A stretch of 8,265 nt of DNA from a virus (lineage: Duplodnaviria > Heunggongvirae > Uroviricota > Caudoviricetes). The stretch lies in the IMG/VR virus record IMGVR_UViG_2690316348_000005. The stretch is one strand, 5' to 3'. Positions 1-8,265 of this stretch are shown one piece after another (position 1 is the stretch's first letter; the number at the start of each line of letters is the position of its first letter). The translations under genes and the position numbers were made by a program. The notes under the pieces are model-generated. The model was not told the DNA's origin. It was given only the letters and a program-made list of their open reading frames with translations, and did not search any database.

Positions 1-73
1 AGGGAAAAATATCATCAGATGGCTGCTTAAAAAAAGAACAAATGGTAGTGTCCGCTATTGCCAGTACACCTCA
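1..73. repeat. Left arm of a 73-bp perfect terminal inverted repeat; reverse complement of 8193..8265
   Basis: Base-by-base comparison of 1..73 with the reverse complement of 8193..8265 gives 73/73 identity; the match ends at position 74 (t versus g). The arm contains the ATG of ORF 42..272. Confidence 0.9.
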
Positions 74-450: not shown

Positions 451-791
451 CGACTTTTACCAGAGAGCAGTTAATAGCTCACGCAGAGGAGACTATTGAA
501 GCACAGAGACTGTGCATACCGGGCACAATCGACCATGACATCATCCGCACATATAAGATGGATATTGCTGTTCTGGAAATCGCACTGGTATCGCTGGCAG
601 CAGAGCCAGCCGGTAAATTGCATGAATACAAACCAGTGGGATATCAGCGTCTGGTCGATGAGTTAACCATGCTGGTAAAGCAGTTAACCTGGCAACTGAG
701 GAAAGCGAAGCCAGACTGCAAATTACCGGATAAGGCGATGAGTTATCTGGAGCGGAACGGACTGATAAGCGTGGAGGATATTTTACGATGA
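447..791 (+). CDS. Hypothetical protein, 114 aa; paralog-like to the 283..450 product
   Basis: ATG at 447 overlaps the upstream stop. Shared motifs with the preceding ORF. Position is typical of small nin-region genes in lambdoid phages. Confidence 0.5.
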
Positions 792-871
792 CCTGGCCTG
801 AAGCATTAACAACGGTAGGAATTGCGATGGCGGTGGCGCTGGTGGTGTATTCGATTTGCCGCTGGGGATAA
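788..871 (+). CDS. Possible 27-aa hydrophobic peptide ([27 protein letters not shown]), translationally coupled to the upstream gene
   Basis: ATG 788..790 overlaps the TGA 789..791 of the upstream ORF (ATGA). One predicted transmembrane-like hydrophobic stretch. Very short, so coding status is uncertain. Confidence 0.25.
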
Positions 872-1082
872 AAACGGTTTGCGGGAAAAGGAGAGTTAAG
901 TAGAATTGCAGCGGGTGCTTGAGGCTATCTGTCTCAGGCATGAACACCAAAAGGCAGATAGAGAAAAGCCCCAGTTAACATTACGCGTCCGGCAAGACGC
1001 TTAACATTAATCTGAGGCTCAATCTATGAACGGCAAATCTAGGTTAGCCTCTTACGTGCCGAAAGGCAAGGAGAAGCAGGCT

Positions 1083-1238
1083 ATGAAGCAGCAAAAGGCG
1101 ATGTTAATCGCCCTGATCGTCATCTGTTTAACCGTCATAGTGACGGCACTGGTAACGAGGAAAGACCTCTGCGAGGTACGAATTCGAACCGGCCAGACGG
1201 AGGTCGCTGTCTTCACAGCTTACGAACCTGAGGAGTAA
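1083..1238 (+). CDS. hokD: Hok/Gef-family type I toxin (HokD/RelF-like), 51 aa
   Basis: Translation MKQQKAMLIALIVICLTVIVTALVTRKDLCEVRIRTGQTEVAVFTAYEPEE matches my recollection of E. coli HokD. The ORF-track start at 1026 is an in-frame upstream extension. The gene is followed by a structured 3' region and a strong intrinsic terminator. Confidence 0.85.
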   Translation: MKQQKAMLIALIVICLTVIVTALVTRKDLCEVRIRTGQTEVAVFTAYEPEE

Positions 1239-1306
1239 GAGACCAGGCGGGGGAGAAATCCCTCGCCACCTCTGATGGGTCAGGCATCCTCAATGCACCC
1301 ACACTT

Positions 1307-1333
1307 AACCCGCTTCGGCGGGTTTTTGTTTTT
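1307..1333 (+). terminator. Rho-independent terminator downstream of hok
   Basis: Stem CCCGC (1309..1313), loop TTCG, stem GCGGG (1318..1322), followed by TTTTTGTTTTT. Confidence 0.75.
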
Positions 1334-1346
1334 ATTTTCAACGCGT

Positions 1347-1376
1347 TTGAAGTTTTAGATGGTGCCGGAATAGAAT
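1347..1376 (+). promoter_or_regulatory. Candidate sigma70 promoter upstream of the rem-like ORF
   Basis: -35 TTGAAG (1347..1352), 18-bp spacer, -10 TAGAAT (1371..1376). Sequence match only. Confidence 0.3.
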
Positions 1377-1458
1377 CAAAAATACTTAAGTAGCGCGCAG
1401 GGAGAAGAGGGATGGACCCCGAACAGGGGAGTGCTATTTATCTGGAAGGATTCTGTTG

Positions 1459-1740
1459 ATGAAAATCGAAGAATTACGTGAAATTTTTAGTGAAGATGGC
1501 CTCTATACTGTGCGCGTTGAGAATGGCGCTATTGTCAGCCACTGCCTTCCAGACTACACAATTCTGATAATTCAGCCGTCTTTGCCAGCAGGCACGGGCG
1601 GCGCTCTCACGCATTTAAATCTGATTGGTACCAGCATCCCCCATGCACTGAAGAACAGGCCGAATGGCTCATTCAGTGTTACCGCAGGCGCGGATGCGAG
1701 GTTAAAAAAGCCCTTAGCCTCGACTACCGTCACTGGATAA
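1459..1740 (+). CDS. Hypothetical protein, about 93 aa; Rem-like by position between hok and the DUF968 gene
   Basis: ORF with ATG at 1459 (the ORF track starts at TTG 1456) and an AAGGA-like ribosome-binding site upstream. The identity is from synteny with the Qin prophage order, not from sequence recognition. Confidence 0.4.
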   Translation: MKIEELREIFSEDGLYTVRVENGAIVSHCLPDYTILIIQPSLPAGTGGALTHLNLIGTSIPHALKNRPNGSFSVTAGADARLKKPLASTTVTG

Positions 1741-1815
1741 TCTCCGTCAGGCTCCCTTACTCCGAACGGCCAACGCGTCCGTCCCGCACATTCCAGCAAC
1801 GGATCTGGAGGTAAT

Positions 1816-2874
1816 GTGCGGGTATTACTTCGACCTGTTCTGGTACCGGAACTCGGTCTGGTTATCGTTAAGCCAGGCCGTGAATCAATGTCAGCATTCC
1901 ATAACGGCAGAATACTGGTGGAGCCGGAACCAAAAAGCATGCGTAATCTGCCGTCCGGGGTCGTTCCTGCCGCTCGCCAGCCGCTGGTGGAAGACAAAAC
2001 ATTGCTGCCGTTTTTCAGTAACGCACGGGTGATTCGTGCTGCTGGTGGTGCTGGTGCATTGTCTGACTGGCTGTTGCGCCATATTAAATCCTGCCAGTGG
2101 CCACACGGCGATTATCATCACAGCGAAACCGTCATTCACCGTTATGGTACCGGCGCAATGGTGTTGTGCTGGCACTGCGACAACCAGCTGCGTGACCAGA
2201 CATCCGAATCACTCGAGCAACTTGCTCATCAAAACCTGTCAGCATGGATGATTGACGTCATCGGTCACGCAATAAGCGGTACGCAGGAGCGTGAATTATC
2301 TCTGGCTGAATTATCCTGGTGGGCGGTCCGCAATCAGGTGGCGGACGCGCTACCGGAAGCGGTATTACGTCGTTCGCTGGGGTTGCGTGCGGAAAAAATT
2401 CGCTCTGTGTACAGTGAAAGCGACATCATACCGGGAGAGCAGACAGCCACCAGCATACTGAAGCAGCGCACAAAAAATATTGCGTTACTGCCTCACGTCC
2501 ACCAGCAACAGAACCCACCACAGGAAAAGACGGTGGTCAGCATTGCCGTTGATCCGGAGTCACCGGCTCAGTATCTCCAGCGCCAGAAATCACAACGGGA
2601 AGAGATGCCTGTATACACGCGCTGGGTAAAAACGCAGAAATGCATGACGTGTGGCAATCAGGCAGATGATCCGCATCACATCATTGGTCATGGACTGGGA
2701 GGGATGGGAACAAAGGCTGATGATTTGTTTGTTATTCCGTTATGCCGTAAATGCCGTAACGAACTACATGCCGGAGTAAAAGATTTTGAAGAGAAACACG
2801 GCAGTCAGCTGTTGTTGCTGATTCGTTTTTTAATGCACGCGAGAAATTCGGGTGTTCTGAAGTGGAAAGCATAA
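1816..2874 (+). CDS. DUF968/YdfU-like prophage protein with a C-terminal HNH-like Cys/His motif, 352 aa
   Basis: Long ORF with GTG start at 1816 and a GGAGG Shine-Dalgarno 4 nt upstream. C-terminal CMTCGNQADDPHHIIGHG...IPLCRKCRNELH resembles an HNH/zinc-finger motif. The stop is immediately followed by the rusA ATG. Start codon is uncertain; an internal ATG near 1888 is an alternative. Confidence 0.65.
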   Translation: MRVLLRPVLVPELGLVIVKPGRESMSAFHNGRILVEPEPKSMRNLPSGVVPAARQPLVEDKTLLPFFSNARVIRAAGGAGALSDWLLRHIKSCQWPHGDYHHSETVIHRYGTGAMVLCWHCDNQLRDQTSESLEQLAHQNLSAWMIDVIGHAISGTQERELSLAELSWWAVRNQVADALPEAVLRRSLGLRAEKIRSVYSESDIIPGEQTATSILKQRTKNIALLPHVHQQQNPPQEKTVVSIAVDPESPAQYLQRQKSQREEMPVYTRWVKTQKCMTCGNQADDPHHIIGHGLGGMGTKADDLFVIPLCRKCRNELHAGVKDFEEKHGSQLLLLIRFLMHARNSGVLKWKA

Positions 2875-3255
2875 ATGACCGAGCGCATAGAATTTGTTTT
2901 ACCTTACCCGCCGACGGTGAACACTTACTGGCGTCGTCGTGGCAGCACATATTTTGTATCAAAAGCCGGGGAGCGTTATCGCCGGGCAGTGGCGCTTATT
3001 GTTCGCCAGCAGCGGCTGAAATTAAGCCTGTCCGGAAGGTTGGCAATAAAAATTATTGCAGAACCACCGGATAAGCGCCGCCGTGACCTGGACAATATTC
3101 TGAAAGCGCCGCTGGATGCGCTGACGCATGCGGGGTTGCTAATGGACGATGAGCAGTTTGATGAAATCAATATCGTTCGTGCTCAGCCAGTATCTGGTGG
3201 ACGTCTGGGGGTGAAGATTTATCCCATAATGCTTGAAGGGCAGGTCAAAAAATGA
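2875..3255 (+). CDS. rusA: RusA-family Holliday junction resolvase, 126 aa
   Basis: Translation carries the RusA-like core ...PPDKRRRDLDNILKAPLDALTHAGLLMDDEQ... with conserved acidic residues, and the size matches RusA. Sits directly upstream of the Q-like gene, as in lambdoid nin regions. Confidence 0.88.
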   Translation: MTERIEFVLPYPPTVNTYWRRRGSTYFVSKAGERYRRAVALIVRQQRLKLSLSGRLAIKIIAEPPDKRRRDLDNILKAPLDALTHAGLLMDDEQFDEINIVRAQPVSGGRLGVKIYPIMLEGQVKK

Positions 3256-4073
3256 AACTGGAAGATTTACCGAAATACTACTCCCCAAAATCCCCCGGCC
3301 TGACTGATGCATCGGCCTCAACGTCGAAAGATGCGCTGAGTATCACTGATGTGATGGCCGCGCAGGGCATGACACAGAATCGGGCTGAGATGGGGGTTTC
3401 TGCGTTCCTTGGGAAAATGGGCATTAGTATGAATGACAGAGAGCGGGCAACAGAATTGCTGACAGAATATGCACTCAGTCGGTGTGATCGCGTGGCGGCG
3501 TTAAGAAAACTCCCGGCAGAAATAAAACCGGCAGTGATGCGTATTATGGCTTCGTATGCGTTTGAAGATTATGCCCGTAGCGCGGCGAGCAAAAAACAGT
3601 GCCCCTGCTGTCACGGAAAAAAATTTATTGAAAGCGAGGTTTTTACAAACAAGATCCAGTATCCGGATGGTAAGCCGCCGGTATGGGCAAAGTGTACGAA
3701 AGGTGTGTATCCGTCTTACTGGGAAGAATGGAAAAAAGTCAGGGAGGTGGTAAAAGTTGCCTGTCCGGAGTGTGGCGGAAAGGGTGAGGTTTCCACCGCC
3801 TGTAAGGATTGCCGTGGGCGTGGTGTCGCCATTCATCGTGAAGAGTCGGTAAAACGTGGTATGCCTGTTATCAGAGACTGCCAGCGTTGTGGTGGTCGTG
3901 GCTATGAAAGACTACCATCAACGGAGGCATTTAATGCTATATGCGAGGTGACAAACCAGATAACACGCGCGTCATGGGAAAAAACAGTTAAGAAATTTTA
4001 TGATGCGCTGGTGACCCGGTTTGATATTGAAGAAGCATGGGCTGAGCGGCAGTTAAAAAAGGTAACTAGGTAA
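3252..4073 (+). CDS. Putative late-gene antiterminator Q-like protein with four CxxCxGxG zinc-finger repeats, 273 aa
   Basis: ATG overlaps the rusA stop (ATGA). Contains CPCCHGKK, CPECGGKG, CKDCRGRG and CQRCGGRG repeats. Lies immediately upstream of a pR'-like promoter whose initial transcribed sequence is ACGATGGG. The Q assignment is by position and zinc motifs, not by a confirmed homology match. Confidence 0.6.
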   Translation: MKLEDLPKYYSPKSPGLTDASASTSKDALSITDVMAAQGMTQNRAEMGVSAFLGKMGISMNDRERATELLTEYALSRCDRVAALRKLPAEIKPAVMRIMASYAFEDYARSAASKKQCPCCHGKKFIESEVFTNKIQYPDGKPPVWAKCTKGVYPSYWEEWKKVREVVKVACPECGGKGEVSTACKDCRGRGVAIHREESVKRGMPVIRDCQRCGGRGYERLPSTEAFNAICEVTNQITRASWEKTVKKFYDALVTRFDIEEAWAERQLKKVTR

Positions 4074-4078
4074 CAAGG

Positions 4079-4114
4079 TTGATTTTTCCGGAATCTGTGG
4101 TAAATTCGTTATAA
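4079..4114 (+). promoter_or_regulatory. pR'-like late promoter with a likely qut region
   Basis: -35 TTGATT (4079..4084), 16-bp spacer, -10 TAAATT (4101..4106), then ACGATGGG. This closely resembles the lambda pR' -10 and initial transcribed sequence as I recall it. Confidence 0.6.
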
Positions 4115-4154
4115 CGATGGGCGTTTTATGCCTGACGTTAGAAGAGTTTCTACA

Positions 4155-4178
4155 ACCCGCCGCCGAGCGGGTTTTTTA
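4155..4178 (+). terminator. tR'-like intrinsic terminator, about 65 nt downstream of the putative late transcription start
   Basis: Stem CCCGC (4156..4160), loop CGCCGA, stem GCGGG (4167..4171), then TTTTTT (4172..4177). Confidence 0.65.
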
Positions 4179-4297
4179 TGACTGAAATCGCGTCAGTACA
4201 GTAAACGCGCTGGTGGCGGTGAATACCTGTCTTTCAGCTTGCTGGCTTTTTCGACAAGAGTTATTGGTGTGTCACGTTAACCGGAAAAGGAAAAGAC

Positions 4298-4495
4298 ATG
4301 CTAAAACAGCAGGATATGACAGAAACCGCCAGAGTGGTGTTTAATGAATTAAGCGTTACCGAACCGGCGACAGTCGGGGAGATAGCGCAGAATACTTACC
4401 TTTCACGCGAACGCTGCCAGTTAATACTGACCCAGCTGGTTATGGCGGGTCTGGCAGACTATCAGTTCGGTTGTTACAGACGCCTTCCGCAGTGA
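4298..4495 (+). CDS. Small putative winged-helix DNA-binding protein, 65 aa
   Basis: ATG at 4298 with an AAGGAAAAG ribosome-binding site upstream. The segment TVGEIAQNTYLSRERCQLILTQLVMAGL has a helix-turn-helix-like pattern. No specific family recognised. Confidence 0.45.
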   Translation: MLKQQDMTETARVVFNELSVTEPATVGEIAQNTYLSRERCQLILTQLVMAGLADYQFGCYRRLPQ

Positions 4496-4524
4496 AGGCT
4501 TTTTTATTTGTGGTAAATGGGCGG

Positions 4525-4551
4525 CTGGTGGGTGTTAGGGGCACCCACCAG
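4525..4551 (+). other. Perfect 10-bp stem hairpin (CTGGTGGGTG / CACCCACCAG, 7-nt loop) between the small wHTH gene and the methyltransferase
   Basis: Exact inverted repeat read from the sequence. Not followed by a T-run, so it is unlikely to be an intrinsic terminator. Confidence 0.4.
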
Positions 4552-4645
4552 CCATCTGCTCATGCGTTGGGTTCACAAGCAAACCTCAGGCCCACTGCTT
4601 TGCGCAAAAGCAGAATGAGCCTATCAGAGACAGGCTTAATGATCC

Positions 4646-5704
4646 ATGCTTAATACTGTAAAAATATCCAGTTGTGAGTTAATCAACGCCGACTGCCTGG
4701 AATTTATCCGGTCGTTACCCGAAAATTCTGTTGACCTGATAGTCACGGACCCGCCGTACTTTAAAGTGAAGCCTGAGGGCTGGGATAACCAGTGGAAGGG
4801 CGACGATGATTACCTGAAGTGGCTGGACCAGTGTCTGGCGCAGTTCTGGCGGGTGCTGAAACCTGCCGGAAGTCTTTACCTGTTCTGTGGTCATCGCCTG
4901 GCATCTGATATCGAAATCATGATGCGTGAACGCTTCAGTGTGCTGAACCATATTATCTGGGCGAAGCCGTCCGGACGCTGGAACGGATGCAACAAGGAAA
5001 GCCTGCGGGCGTATTTCCCCGCCACAGAGCGCATTCTGTTCGCGGAACATTATCAGGGGCCGTATCGTCCGAAAGATGCCGGGTATGCGGCGAAGGGCAG
5101 TGCACTGAAACAGCATGTGATGGCCCCGCTGATTTCTTACTTTCGTGATGCGCGAGCTGCCCTGGGGATAACGGCAAAACAGATTGCAGATGCCACAGGA
5201 AAGAAAAACATGGTGTCGCACTGGTTCAGTGCCGGTCAGTGGCAGTTGCCGAATGAAAGCGATTATCTGAAATTACAGGCGCTGTTTGCCCGGGTGGCAG
5301 AAGAGAAGCATCGGCGTGGTGAACTGGAAAAGCTCCACCACCAGCTGGTGGATACGTATACCTCACTGAACCGGCAGTATGCGGAGCTGCTGAGTGAATA
5401 TAAACATCTGCGGCGGTATTTTGGCGTGACGGTGCAGGTGCCGTATACCGATGTGTGGACGCATAAACCGGTGCAGTTCTATCCCGGGAAACATCCGTGC
5501 GAAAAACCGGCAGAAATGCTGCAGCAGATAATCAGCGCTAGCAGTCGTCCGGGTGACCTGATTGCAGATTTTTTCATGGGGTTGGGTTCGACAGTGAAAG
5601 CGGCACTGGCGCTCGGGCGTCGTGCAATTGGCGTTGAGCTGGAGACTGAACGTTTTGAGCAGACGGTTCGGGAAGTACAGGATTTAGTCAGCCAGAACGG
5701 ATGA
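4646..5704 (+). CDS. Orphan beta-class DNA methyltransferase (N6-adenine/N4-cytosine family, probably N6-adenine), 352 aa
   Basis: Catalytic motif IV DPPY (LIVTDPPYF) lies N-terminal to the SAM-binding motif I FxGxG (DLIADFFMGLGST), which is the beta-class order. No adjacent restriction endonuclease candidate is visible. Confidence 0.88.
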   Translation: MLNTVKISSCELINADCLEFIRSLPENSVDLIVTDPPYFKVKPEGWDNQWKGDDDYLKWLDQCLAQFWRVLKPAGSLYLFCGHRLASDIEIMMRERFSVLNHIIWAKPSGRWNGCNKESLRAYFPATERILFAEHYQGPYRPKDAGYAAKGSALKQHVMAPLISYFRDARAALGITAKQIADATGKKNMVSHWFSAGQWQLPNESDYLKLQALFARVAEEKHRRGELEKLHHQLVDTYTSLNRQYAELLSEYKHLRRYFGVTVQVPYTDVWTHKPVQFYPGKHPCEKPAEMLQQIISASSRPGDLIADFFMGLGSTVKAALALGRRAIGVELETERFEQTVREVQDLVSQNG

Positions 5705-5744
5705 TATTGAAGAATTAATTACGCGTCGTTATTATGCGGCTCCC

Positions 5745-5820
5745 GGCCCTTTAGCTCAGTGGTGAGAGCGAGCGACTCATAATCGCCAGGTCGCTGGTTC
5801 AAATCCAGCAAGGGCCACCA
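5745..5820 (+). tRNA. ileZ: tRNA-Ile2-like, anticodon CAT (presumed lysidine-modified, reads AUA)
   Basis: Manual cloverleaf: 7-bp acceptor GGCCCTT/AAGGGCC, D-arm with GG, anticodon loop CTCATAA, T-loop TTCAAAT, encoded CCA. Overall resemblance to E. coli ileX. The Ile-versus-Met call rests on that resemblance. Confidence 0.8.
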
Positions 5821-5827
5821 TCACATA

Positions 5828-5904
5828 CCGCCATTAGCTCATCAGGAAAGAGCGCCAGCCTTCGAAGCTGGCTGCGCGGGGTTCAAGTCCCCGATGGCGG
5901 TCCA
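5828..5904 (+). tRNA. argN: tRNA-Arg, anticodon TCG
   Basis: Manual cloverleaf: acceptor CCGCCAT/ATGGCGG (C1-G72), anticodon stem CCAGC/GCTGG, loop CTTCGAA, T-loop TTCAAGT, encoded CCA. The gene symbol is by position in a 933W-like ileZ-argN-argO cluster and is tentative. Confidence 0.75.
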
Positions 5905-5917
5905 TTATCTGCATCAT

Positions 5918-5994
5918 GCGTTGTTAGCTCAGCCGGACAGAGCAATTGCCTTCTAAGCAATCGGTCACTGGTTCGAATCCAGTACAGCGCGCCA
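5918..5994 (+). tRNA. argO: tRNA-Arg, anticodon TCT (reads AGA)
   Basis: Manual cloverleaf: acceptor GCGTTGT/ACAGCGC with a U4-G69 wobble, anticodon stem ATTGC/GCAAT, loop CTTCTAA, T-loop TTCGAAT, encoded CCA. The gene symbol is by position and is tentative. Confidence 0.8.
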
Positions 5995-6128
5995 TATTCA
6001 TTCTTCCAGATTCCTTCCGGCAGAGCCTTATACTGAAATATACCTGGCTCAGGATATTGTTGAAAATATTTTATGTTTGTCAAAAATAAAAGTTCTGTTA
6101 AGTATTGATTGAGTGTTTGTTATACGGT

Positions 6129-6458
6129 CTAATGGTTTTTTCAGCATTAAATATTTATCATTCATATGGTGTGGGTAGAGTGAATATTGATGAGGCGTCG
6201 GGGTGTTTCATCCTTAGGCAGCGTATTGATATAGTCAATGCAGCACGAGCAAAGGCCTTCAGCCGTTTGACAGTTTTGTTCTGTACTCCTGATCGTCTTT
6301 CGGGAAGAGACGTTATTATTCTGAATAGTGATGCTATACAGAGGGTTTGCGATGAGTTCATGGTTGCTAATTCAGAATTATTTGCTCTTGTTCAGGAGTA
6401 CAACAGAATAGCCAGGACCTGTGGTATGGATGAACTTCGGATTACTCATCTGGGGTAG
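6129..6458 (+). CDS. Hypothetical protein (about 109 aa from ATG 6129; 117 aa from TTG 6105) in the segment inserted after the first tRNA cluster
   Basis: ORF beginning in an AT-rich stretch with a candidate promoter TTGATT (6105..6110), 17-bp spacer, TCTAAT. No clear Shine-Dalgarno and no recognised family. Confidence 0.3.
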   Translation, partial: LMVFSALNIYHSYGVGRVNIDEASGCFILRQRIDIVNAARAKAFSRLTVLFCTPDRLSGRDVIILNSDAIQRVCDEFMVANSELFALVQEYNRIARTCGMDELRITHLG

Positions 6459-6650
6459 ATACATATCTGGATTATCACCTGTTACGGTAAAAAGTGATTG
6501 CTTACTGTTTTTGTGAATGGCATTGCAGCAGCCGGATAATGTCAGTGCTGGCTGACGGTGTGCTGGTGGCGGGTGTGGTGGTTGTTGCTTTCCCGTTGCT
6601 GAAAAAGAAAACGCCAGACTGTTAGCCGGGTATCAGTTAGCGGGAGAAAT

Positions 6651-6855
6651 TTTTAAATACTTCACAATTCAGGCGGTTGACTGTTGTCTGGTTTGCGGGG
6701 AGTTTGTTAAAAGAAACTGGCATGGTGAATCCCCCTGTGCGGAGGGGCAATCAGCGAGTAGGTATATGGGATAATCGCGGATTCAGGTGCTGGTACTGAA
6801 TTCACCGGGAGGCACCCGGCACCATGCAATGGCACATAGCGCCACTCTCCAGCCC
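6651..6855 (+). repeat. Direct repeat B, copy 1 (about 205 bp), GC-rich and structured; truncated just before the terminator that ends copy 2
   Basis: Matches 7215..7419, identical over the last ~165 bp with about 6 mismatches in the first ~40 bp. Contains hairpins such as CCCCCTGTGCGGAGGGG. Confidence 0.85.
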
Positions 6856-6928
6856 AAAGTACAGGATTTAGTCAGCCAGAACGGATGATATTGAAGAATT
6901 AATTACGCGTCGTTATTATGCGGCTCCC

Positions 6929-7004
6929 GGCCCTTTAGCTCAGTGGTGAGAGCGAGCGACTCATAATCGCCAGGTCGCTGGTTCAAATCCAGCAAGGGCC
7001 ACCA
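6929..7004 (+). tRNA. ileZ: tRNA-Ile2-like, anticodon CAT, second copy
   Basis: Identical to 5745..5820. Confidence 0.8.
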
Positions 7005-7011
7005 TCACATA

Positions 7012-7088
7012 CCGCCATTAGCTCATCAGGAAAGAGCGCCAGCCTTCGAAGCTGGCTGCGCGGGGTTCAAGTCCCCGATGGCGGTCCA
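7012..7088 (+). tRNA. argN: tRNA-Arg, anticodon TCG, second copy
   Basis: Identical to 5828..5904. Confidence 0.75.
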
Positions 7089-7101
7089 TTATCTGCATCA
7101 T

Positions 7102-7178
7102 GCGTTGTTAGCTCAGCCGGACAGAGCAATTGCCTTCTAAGCAATCGGTCACTGGTTCGAATCCAGTACAACGCGCCA
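7102..7178 (+). tRNA. argO: tRNA-Arg, anticodon TCT, second copy with a Watson-Crick U4-A69 pair
   Basis: Identical to 5918..5994 except G69 to A (position 7171), which converts the U4-G69 wobble into U-A. Confidence 0.8.
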
Positions 7179-7192
7179 CACTTATTTTCCCT

Positions 7193-7218
7193 GGCTCGCT
7201 TTTGCGGGCCTTTTTTTT
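7193..7218 (+). terminator. Intrinsic terminator immediately after the second tRNA cluster
   Basis: Stem GGCTCGC / GCGGGCC (one G-U pair), loop TTTT, followed by TTTTTTTT (7211..7218). There is no equivalent after the first tRNA cluster. Confidence 0.7.
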
Positions 7219-7419
7219 AAATGTCTCACAATTCAGACGGTTGACAGTTGTCTGTTTTGCGGGGAGTTTGTTAAAAGAAACTGGCATGGTGAATCCCCCT
7301 GTGCGGAGGGGCAATCAGCGAGTAGGTATATGGGATAATCGCGGATTCAGGTGCTGGTACTGAATTCACCGGGAGGCACCCGGCACCATGCAATGGCACA
7401 TAGCGCCACTCTCCAGCCC
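7215..7419 (+). repeat. Direct repeat B, copy 2 (about 205 bp)
   Basis: See copy 1. This copy begins with a perfect TTGACA (7242..7247) and is followed by a terminator. Confidence 0.85.
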
Positions 7420-7440
7420 CTCTCCGGAGGGGCTGTTTAT
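7415..7440 (+). terminator. Intrinsic terminator at the boundary between repeat B copy 2 and the AT-rich island
   Basis: Stem AGCCCCTC (7415..7422), loop TCCG, stem GAGGGGCT (7427..7434), followed by GTTTATATTGATTTT. Confidence 0.65.
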
Positions 7441-7469
7441 ATTGATTTTGTCAGATGTGAGTAAACTCC

Positions 7470-7805
7470 TTATGGACTTTGTTGTTTTAGTCCATAAGGA
7501 CATATTTGCAGAGTGCAACGGTTATTAAAGCATTCATTCAATACGTTATCTGTATTTGTAGGGCATTCCTGGCTATTTTTGATTGAATTCCAGAATGTTT
7601 TATTGAATGGTACTACGTTGTAAATGGTTACAGGTAGCACTTTGTTATTGAGCATGATGCCTGTGTGAGTCAGTGTAAATATACTTTCAGGAGGTAAGAA
7701 AGCATCCGATTGATACCAGATTATTAATTTTATTTTACTCCATATGACTGAAAAAGATATTCCGCATGATGGCTGGATAACTGTATCAATCACAATCCAC
7801 TTCAT
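7470..7805 (-). CDS. Hypothetical protein, 111 aa, in the AT-rich island; the only credible minus-strand gene in the window
   Basis: ATG (complement of 7803..7805) preceded on the minus strand by AAGGAAA with 6-nt spacing. Candidate promoter TTTACA-15-TATACT further upstream on the minus strand. The 3' end overlaps a 12-bp perfect hairpin (7467..7500). No family recognised. Confidence 0.4.
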
Positions 7806-8065
7806 TTAGTTTCCTTGTTTATGCCTTGCTGGTGATGTTCTGAAAAGTATAAATGATATTTTTGAATGTAAACCATAGAGCAGAATTATTTTTCTGATGT
7901 TGTTTATTGTTTATTTAAATGCAGGGTGGTTTATATCTCGTCTTGTAGTTTATCCATGCATATCTGCTTGATAATCAGGTTTTTATTTAAGGTATGGTTT
8001 TGTGTTTTTTCTGTATTACATGTCAGGTATTTTAAAGAATTATTTTTCAGATGGTGGAAAGAACC

Positions 8066-8239
8066 ATGGCATTTAAACACTATGATGTTGTCAGGGCGGC
8101 GCCGCCGTCAGATCTTGCGGAAAAGCTGACACATAAACTGAAAGAGGGCTGGCAGCCGTTTGGTAGTCCGGTGGCCATAACCCCTTATACCCTGAGGTGT
8201 ACTGGCAATAGCGGACACTACCATTTGTTCTTTTTTTAA
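8066..8239 (+). CDS. Small hypothetical protein, 57 aa (62 aa from the alternative ATG at 8051); possibly DUF1737-like
   Basis: ORF with a GGTGGA-like ribosome-binding site before ATG 8066. The EGWQPFG motif reminds me of small prophage proteins found upstream of lysis genes, but this is a weak recollection. The last 47 nt of the CDS lie inside the right terminal inverted repeat. Confidence 0.4.
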   Translation: MAFKHYDVVRAAPPSDLAEKLTHKLKEGWQPFGSPVAITPYTLRCTGNSGHYHLFFF

Positions 8240-8265
8240 GCAGCCATCTGATGATATTTTTCCCT
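8193..8265. repeat. Right arm of the 73-bp perfect terminal inverted repeat
   Basis: Reverse complement equals 1..73 exactly. Contains the C-terminal codons and 3' flank of the 8066..8239 ORF. Confidence 0.9.

Follow-up and report, generated by a model that had tools for sequence, protein, structure and literature searches.

In Stx2 phages such as Stx2a_WGPS6 and 933W, the Shiga toxin genes stx2AB form a moron, a piece of cargo inside the late operon located upstream of STnc100-like sequence, a nanS-p/SASA esterase and the lysis genes, with STnc100 placed 75 nt downstream of stx2 (PMC12370729). The gene order of the Stx2 phage WGPS6, which comprises Q, ileZ-argN-argO, stx2A, stx2B, an STnc100-like stretch, the esterase and the holin, agrees with that published placement. 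A second arrangement is observed in phage JLK-2012, where the tRNAs are followed by tciA, tciB, an STnc100-like stretch, yjhS and the holin, the names tciA and tciB having been taken from phage P1. The literature on prophages with ileZ-argN-argO and on DUF3927 yielded nothing useful. The stretch of DNA analysed here (the window) comprises the 8,265 nucleotides of the virus record IMGVR_UViG_2690316348_000005 (Caudoviricetes) and is the late-regulatory region of a lambdoid prophage, with the 5' to 3' order sok/hok, DUF968 protein, RusA, Q antiterminator, DNA methyltransferase (MTase), tRNA triplet and segment X. Segment X, the subject of this analysis, starts at 5995, directly at the CCA end of a tRNA-Arg(TCT) that ends at 5994, and extends to about 6636-6650. 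It is probable that X represents a ready-made, circulating two-gene cargo cassette ("moron") of lambdoid prophages, composed of a leader, the gene orf92 and a gene for a DUF3927/TciB-like peptide, and, as part of the same reading, that the duplicated tRNA cluster of the window originates from scaffolding.

The cargo slot and the prevalence of segment X

As judged from gene order, the slot of X, which reaches from the tRNA cluster to STnc100, is the one occupied by stx2AB in Stx2 phages, and X lies downstream of Q and of the tRNA cluster on the + strand, like both of them. The left border of the slot is tRNA triplet A (5745..5994, + strand, detected by ARAGORN and Rfam), which includes tRNA-Ile2(CAT), tRNA-Arg(TCG) and tRNA-Arg(TCT); ARAGORN labels the first of these as Met, and the names given to the equivalent genes by the Prokaryotic Genome Annotation Pipeline (PGAP) are tRNA-Ile, Arg and Arg. 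The right border is the first copy of the small RNA gene STnc100 (6691..6842, + strand; RF02076, 102 bits against a gathering threshold of 47). A first-pass annotation, made by a model from the letters of the window, had placed a segment of about 650 bp of non-homologous DNA at the 3' end of tRNA-Arg(TCT) and had regarded this position as a cargo hotspot equivalent to that of stx. The hotspot is borne out by the order in WGPS6, by the published placement (PMC12370729) and by the position of X between argO and STnc100 in 1184 genomes. The segment itself was recovered as well: the two tRNA copies of the window are identical up to 5986, differ at 5987, show no similarity from 5995 and become similar again at 6637-6650, and 5995-6650 is thus the stretch peculiar to copy A, starting at the CCA end.

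The occupants of this slot differ between phages. X carries two small genes (92 aa and 43 aa) with no family link to StxA or StxB, and it abuts the CCA end, whereas about 90 nt lie between argO and stx2A in WGPS6. Among the Stx families, no Pfam match was found for any open reading frame (ORF) of X at an expect value (E) of up to 0.1, and none was found in the profile search of PDB sequences; the earlier impression that the frame is unrelated to Stx holds, as there is no match to a Pfam toxin family. Phage JLK-2012 shares with X the slot, the last 28 residues of TciB and the STnc100 region, at 93.7% DNA identity from window position 6526, but its upstream gene is tciA in place of orf92, and its tRNA set is Asn, Thr and Gly. 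In a further group of prophages, here type II, the tRNAs are followed by an intrinsic terminator as the sole slot occupant and then by STnc100 and the esterase. In the two complete E. coli genomes L007 and L009, the slot holds a TolA-like gene and an AraC-like gene in addition to an orf92 homologue; the full order there (about 690-4900) is MTase, tRNA-Ile, tRNA-Arg, TolA-like gene, MTase remnant, AraC-type regulator, orf92 homologue, three STnc100-like repeats and esterase. The MTase 3' remnant of these loci measures 150 nt with 80% identity to window 5549-5700, the orf92 homologue is unannotated, and the loci contain no Ns. Modular accretion at this slot thus occurs naturally in L007 and L009. 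Exchange of slot cassettes would proceed by homologous recombination in the conserved flanks, namely the tRNAs and STnc100.

The cassette is common. The stretch 5995-6856 was detected at a coverage of at least 80% in 1184 of the 5426 complete E. coli genomes, mostly with at least 99% identity, and the shorter stretch 5995-6480 in 1183 of them. Carriers include the O104:H4 outbreak strains and, at 99.3%, phage mEp460, and 178 IMG/VR contigs encode the orf92 protein. X is also 100% identical to the locus in record CP000038 (L107). The left edge is invariant, as each of the fetched copies of X (93/93) begins at the CCA end of argO, and this together with the count of 1184 bears on how often the segment occupies the post-tRNA site, a point which had been raised earlier. 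The usual order downstream of X is STnc100, IraM, SASA/DUF1737 esterase and holin. X is accordingly a widespread and already catalogued cargo (phrog_2873, "hypothetical protein") and not a novel insertion. The first-pass annotation had presented it as inserted, unrecognised DNA; this view has to be given up, since the cassette is common, identical in published genomes and recorded both as a PHROG family and as a hypothetical protein, and since the copy used for comparison is probably an artefact of scaffolding.

Gene model, selection and family of orf92

An open frame spans 6105 to 6458 on the + strand of X, with possible starts at TTG 6105, ATG 6132 and GTG 6180. On comparative evidence, the genuine protein-coding gene is orf92, which runs from GTG 6180 to 6458 and encodes 92 aa. 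Upstream of the conserved "VNID(E/D)" start, an in-frame stop is present in L008 and a frame change in L007, and because of these the coding conservation is limited to the 92-aa core from GTG 6180. The GTG start is kept in three lineages, and exactly the 92-aa coding sequence (CDS) is called by PGAP in ETEC6333. Variable sites are denser upstream of 6180 than in the core, and 5/6 of those upstream would change an amino acid in the frame of the ORF. The two longer starts, TTG 6105 and ATG 6132, were considered and ruled out by the upstream stops and frame changes in the relatives together with this site variation. An ORF of about 110 aa from 6129 had been proposed at first; the ATG is in fact at 6132, and the conserved CDS is the one from GTG 6180.

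The core of orf92 is under purifying selection, as indicated by codon comparisons. Relatives in other E. coli prophages exhibit 57-63% protein identity, and against three lineages the ratio of non-synonymous to synonymous substitution (dN/dS) is 0.26-0.27, with proportions of synonymous differences (pS) of 0.53-0.58 and of non-synonymous differences (pN) of 0.21-0.25. Changes at third codon positions are about twice as frequent as at the first or the second, and the contrast between synonymous and non-synonymous change vanishes in both shifted frames. Of the near-identical copies, 92/93 are intact. A chance ORF, with X serving DUF3927 and STnc100 only as non-coding spacer DNA or as a regulatory leader, is very improbable. 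Such a reading can draw on the missing PGAP feature over orf92 in nearly all of the complete genomes listed, on the GTG start with its weak ribosome-binding site and on the lack of a Pfam or NCBIfam family, but synonymous change exceeds non-synonymous change about 2.4-fold per site in this frame only, across the three lineages at 57-63% protein identity, a length of 91-95 aa is kept down to 33% identity, including copies annotated as CDS in Citrobacter and on plasmids, and there is a confident AlphaFold2 (AF2) model in addition to the PGAP call in ETEC6333. The possibility that the frame is a fragment of a larger disrupted gene, which had been named at the outset as a potential refutation, does not agree with relatives that are all 91-95 aa long and a frame under purifying selection.

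The catalogued family of the ORF is phrog_2873 (PHROGs v4), whose profile covers the product end to end (residues 10-117 against profile positions 1-108 of 108, E 3.8e-70); the PHROG model uses the 108-aa start at ATG 6132, whereas the comparative evidence favours the 92-aa GTG start. No match to orf92 was found in Pfam or NCBIfam, and none among the anti-phage defence models of PADLOC-DB 2.0 at E up to 0.1 for orf92, the DUF3927 protein or IraM. The first-pass annotation had noted no recognisable motifs, which is correct with respect to Pfam and is overturned by the full-length match to phrog_2873. Relatives down to 33% identity, all of 91-95 aa, include Citrobacter and plasmid copies annotated as CDS; those with a source name come from Escherichia, Shigella or Citrobacter, and all are called "hypothetical". 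The family is very small, an exhaustive profile search having returned 20 representatives among 1.84 billion proteins. The IncF plasmids L115 and L116 of E. coli carry a 91-aa relative of about 34% identity (locus 4001-4276), located between insertion sequence (IS) copies, without DUF3927 and with no informative neighbour. Weak tblastn matches of about 32-33% identity (E about 1e-3) were also observed in L001 (3999-4142) and L002 (1999-2139, minus strand), in a frame that lacks annotation and is flanked by rem and the DUF968 gene; this frame is possibly a distant orf92 paralogue, and the sequence match may be due to chance. A weak match links orf92 to phrog_4827 (E 4e-5). The 90%-identity cluster of the 92-aa protein also holds 149-aa members named "50S ribosomal protein L9", a feature that seems to stem from the clustering or the index and not from biology.

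The AF2 model of orf92 (predicted local distance difference test, pLDDT, 85.7; predicted template modelling score, pTM, 0.72) displays helices at residues 3-35 and 50-81 with a beta-hairpin between them, and the most conserved motif of the protein (FSRLTVLFCTPDR) sits in the predicted beta-hairpin. With an isoelectric point (pI) of 5.7 and a grand average of hydropathy (GRAVY) of 0.13, the product is acidic and mildly hydrophobic, values which do not point to a membrane protein, and the predicted fold is taken to be cytoplasmic. The predicted topology of helix, beta-hairpin and helix is the same as in prefoldin beta, with a TM-score of 0.70 to 2zdi_B; at E 1.4 this match falls short of significance, the sequences show no similarity, and generic helical hairpins score equally, which leaves a resemblance only. 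Of the profile and structure searches proposed for the ORF product at the outset, the former led to the unnamed family phrog_2873 and the latter to no significant neighbour in PDB or BFVD. With low confidence, the model would describe a soluble protein of helix, beta-hairpin and helix which binds a partner or associates with itself rather than acting as an enzyme. Going beyond this, orf92 could be the founder of an uncharacterised, Enterobacteriaceae-restricted helix-hairpin-helix family, made on induction from the slot used by Shiga toxin and binding a host or rival-phage protein as a factor in lysogenic conversion or phage competition; this proposal is tentative and somewhat doubtful.

Leader, transcription and the DUF3927/TciB-like gene

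The AT-rich, non-coding leader of the cassette occupies 5995..6179 on the + strand. In agreement with the AT-rich first 200 bp or so described earlier, the GC content is 0.33 at 6000-6199 against 0.52-0.57 upstream. An RNA element in this leader was considered and ruled out, as the stretch 5995-6179 has no stable RNA fold (z = -0.27) and no Rfam match at E up to 1. The leader contains the candidate promoter of the first-pass annotation, TTGATT (6105-6110) and TCTAAT (6128-6133) with a spacing of 17, which fared poorly on inspection: the site was not reported by a consensus scan for promoters, its candidate -10 hexamer overlaps ATG 6132 and is without the near-invariant A at position 2, and its candidate -35 hexamer is kept in only one (L007) of two diverged lineages, the other being L008. 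For one diverged lineage, homology sets in at 6103, directly by the candidate -35 hexamer. Promoter-like sites are not enriched in the X region, with 8 found against 5.0 +/- 2.2 expected. A promoter of X's own is possible, the sequence candidate being weak, its -10 element poor and the second lineage different. The best promoter-like match near the cassette lies on the minus strand (6083-6056, TTGACA-16-AACAAT, 10/12) and points back into the tRNA cluster.

By analogy with stx2, X would be transcribed mainly by read-through from pR' in the Q-antiterminated late transcript on induction. Such Q-dependent transcription is suggested because X lies downstream of Q and because there is no terminator between argO and orf92; the terminator scan detected none of X's own ahead of STnc100. 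In lysogens, some expression may come in addition from a weak promoter belonging to X.

The second gene of the cassette begins 35 nt past orf92 in the same orientation (6494..6625, + strand) and encodes a small hydrophobic protein of 43 aa (GRAVY 0.95), regarded as a membrane peptide. It matches PF13064 (DUF3927) with 95.6 bits against a cutoff of 25 and phrog_1470, "TciB-like", with E 7.8e-13, and "DUF3927 family protein" is routinely written here by PGAP. Its C-terminal 28 residues are identical to those of TciB of phage JLK-2012. This gene had been overlooked by the first-pass annotation, as had STnc100 at 6691-6842 and the second MTase tail and tRNA triplet at 6857-7178. It could be argued by analogy that orf92 and the DUF3927 gene form one functional pair like tciA-tciB of P1 and JLK-2012, in which the soluble orf92 product would regulate the small membrane peptide or cooperate with it, for example in membrane stress or in excluding other phages. 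The two genes are co-oriented, 35 nt apart and found together in about 1180 genomes, JLK-2012 has the same DUF3927 C-terminus behind tciA in the same slot, and in L007 a remnant reading CFCDWWC, similar to the N-terminus of DUF3927, is retained about 80 nt past the orf92 homologue. The pairing is nevertheless quite unlikely. In ETEC6333 and on IncF plasmids, relatives of orf92 occur with no DUF3927 gene beside them, so orf92 need not act with DUF3927; similarity to JLK-2012 sets in only within the DUF3927 gene (query 532, equal to window 6526), which indicates a mosaic joint; and PADLOC has no model matching either protein.

Several points weigh against the preferred reading of X as a two-gene cargo cassette whose main gene is expressed on induction, next to a tRNA cluster duplicated by scaffolding. 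The GTG start of orf92 is accompanied by a weak Shine-Dalgarno sequence (TGGGTAGA), and PGAP leaves the gene unannotated in nearly all RefSeq genomes carrying it. The AF2 model was built on a 4-sequence alignment, the best Foldseek hits (E 0.26 in PDB, 0.44 in BFVD) are generic helical hairpins only, and the profile search against all PDB sequences gave no informative match (best E 0.61). The Q-dependent transcription of orf92 is deduced from position alone, and orf92 relatives without DUF3927 are present in L008 and on IncF plasmids. Finally, natural MTase-tail remnants and stacked cargo are present in the complete genomes L007 and L009, and the joint at 6856 could be real.

The duplicated tRNA cluster, flanking features and implications

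Behind the first STnc100 copy, the window holds the MTase 3' tail (72 nt) a second time, followed by a tRNA triplet B (together 6857..7178, + strand), with 5673-5986 exactly equal to 6857-7170. The stretch 6637-6855 recurs at 7201-7419 with about 95% identity, and both contain STnc100. When the window was compared with other loci, it resolved into blocks of two kinds. Positions 1646-5986 correspond to the type II locus of HE616528 (L096; 99.84% over 1646-6007), 5918-6855 to the type I locus of CP000038 (L107; 100%), 6857-7385 again to type II (100%) and 7256-8265 again to type I (100%), while the lone A at 6856 has no source. Both records are presumed to be Shigella sonnei chromosomes, although no search output names either organism; exact protein sequences of the window bear S. 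sonnei names in public records. Both switches from type II to type I fall inside identical stretches (69 nt in argO and 130 nt in STnc100), whereas the type I to type II joint, 6855|A|6857, shows no homology and leaves the single base 6856 between the type I block 5918-6855 and the type II block 6857-7385 as a non-homologous joint. The first STnc100 copy is without its terminator hairpin, as its block stops at 6855 where natural loci run on into the hairpin. Assembly-graph k-mer logic gave no firm account of the block ends, copy 1 running 164 nt into the shared stretch.

The tandem tRNA cluster is probably a scaffold artefact in which two contigs of one genome were joined at 6856. The IMG/VR loci L064 and L028 consist of the same kinds of stacked blocks, one L064 block being 99.97% identical to the window over 3.2 kb, and they are contigs joined end to end because a single N is present at every joint. 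The orphan base 6856 is placed exactly where such a joint N would be, and by analogy the A would represent an N stored as A. In the alternative, the tandem arrangement belongs to a real recombinant prophage, produced by recombination of two resident prophages and one illegitimate join, with X truly located between two tRNA clusters. For this speak the absence of any N from the window, the true MTase-tail remnants and the three STnc100-like repeats of L007 and L009, which indicate that cargo modules can stack naturally, and the homologous switches, which lie in identical stretches of 69 nt and 130 nt that could also accommodate real crossovers. It is rendered unlikely by the joint 6855|A|6857, which has no homology and one orphan base, was absent from all 5426 complete E. 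coli genomes and had no exact match in IMG/VR or in JGI metagenomes, by the 100% identity of every block to one of two separate loci, and by the single N that marks each joint in IMG/VR scaffolds of like block composition. An ORF spanning the 6856 joint is likewise not on record. The origin of the joint does not affect X either way, as all of X falls within a single block that matches a finished genome exactly.

Other features of the window were assigned as follows. Upstream, the sok antisense RNA of a hok/sok-type toxin-antitoxin locus was detected at 913-1088 (Rfam, 112 bits), and hokD is the annotation at the equivalent spot in related loci; the Q antiterminator is located at 3252-4073 (PF03589, E 1.6e-53) and an N6/N4 DNA methyltransferase, the MTase, at 4646-5704 (domain match). 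Directly after argO copy B, an intrinsic terminator is present (7193..7218, + strand; a 7-bp stem with 6 GC pairs, then T8), an arrangement also observed in FDAARGOS_1059 and type II loci; argO copy A has no counterpart of this terminator behind it. The two argO copies differ at position 69 of the acceptor stem (5987 against 7171), where G in copy A gives a U4-G69 wobble and A in copy B a U4-A69 pair, and both were scored as tRNAs despite this difference. The second STnc100 copy (7255..7444, + strand; Rfam 133.6 bits, model positions 1-206) is complete with its terminator at 7414-7435. It is followed on the minus strand by a prophage IraM homologue of the anti-adaptor family (7470..7805; NCBIfam NF007393, 158 bits against a cutoff of 121; phrog_4407), which is also named by PGAP and, in type I loci, lies next to the cassette on its downstream side; this homologue of anti-adaptors protecting RpoS adjoins the cassette and is convergent with STnc100. 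A DUF1737 N-terminus was found at 8051-8239 (domain match). At both ends of the window (1-73 and 8193-8265) stands the same IS600-like terminus of the IS3 family, the two copies being inverted and 100% complementary to each other. The IS cuts the esterase/DUF1737 gene at 8195, exactly where it does so in the CP000038 locus (L107), and the window has the look of a contig or scaffold with an IS copy at either end.

The slot considered here is the Shiga toxin site of lambdoid phages, and other cargo at this site would be induced in the same manner, with possible effects on host fitness or virulence. The cassette X belongs to the commonest slot occupants, being present in about a fifth of the complete E. 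coli genomes, and its main gene is usually unannotated in RefSeq. The analysis yields a corrected 92-aa gene model with a GTG start and evidence of selection, and it identifies X as ordinary cargo; the duplicated tRNA cluster of the window is not to be read as biology, as it is probably a scaffolding artefact. The remaining interest lies in the small protein encoded in the stx slot, uncharacterised and under selection. If orf92 indeed acts as an induced conversion or competition factor, it would represent a widespread, overlooked accessory function, carried by about 22% of complete E. coli genomes, by the O104:H4 outbreak strains and by a probable Shigella sonnei locus.

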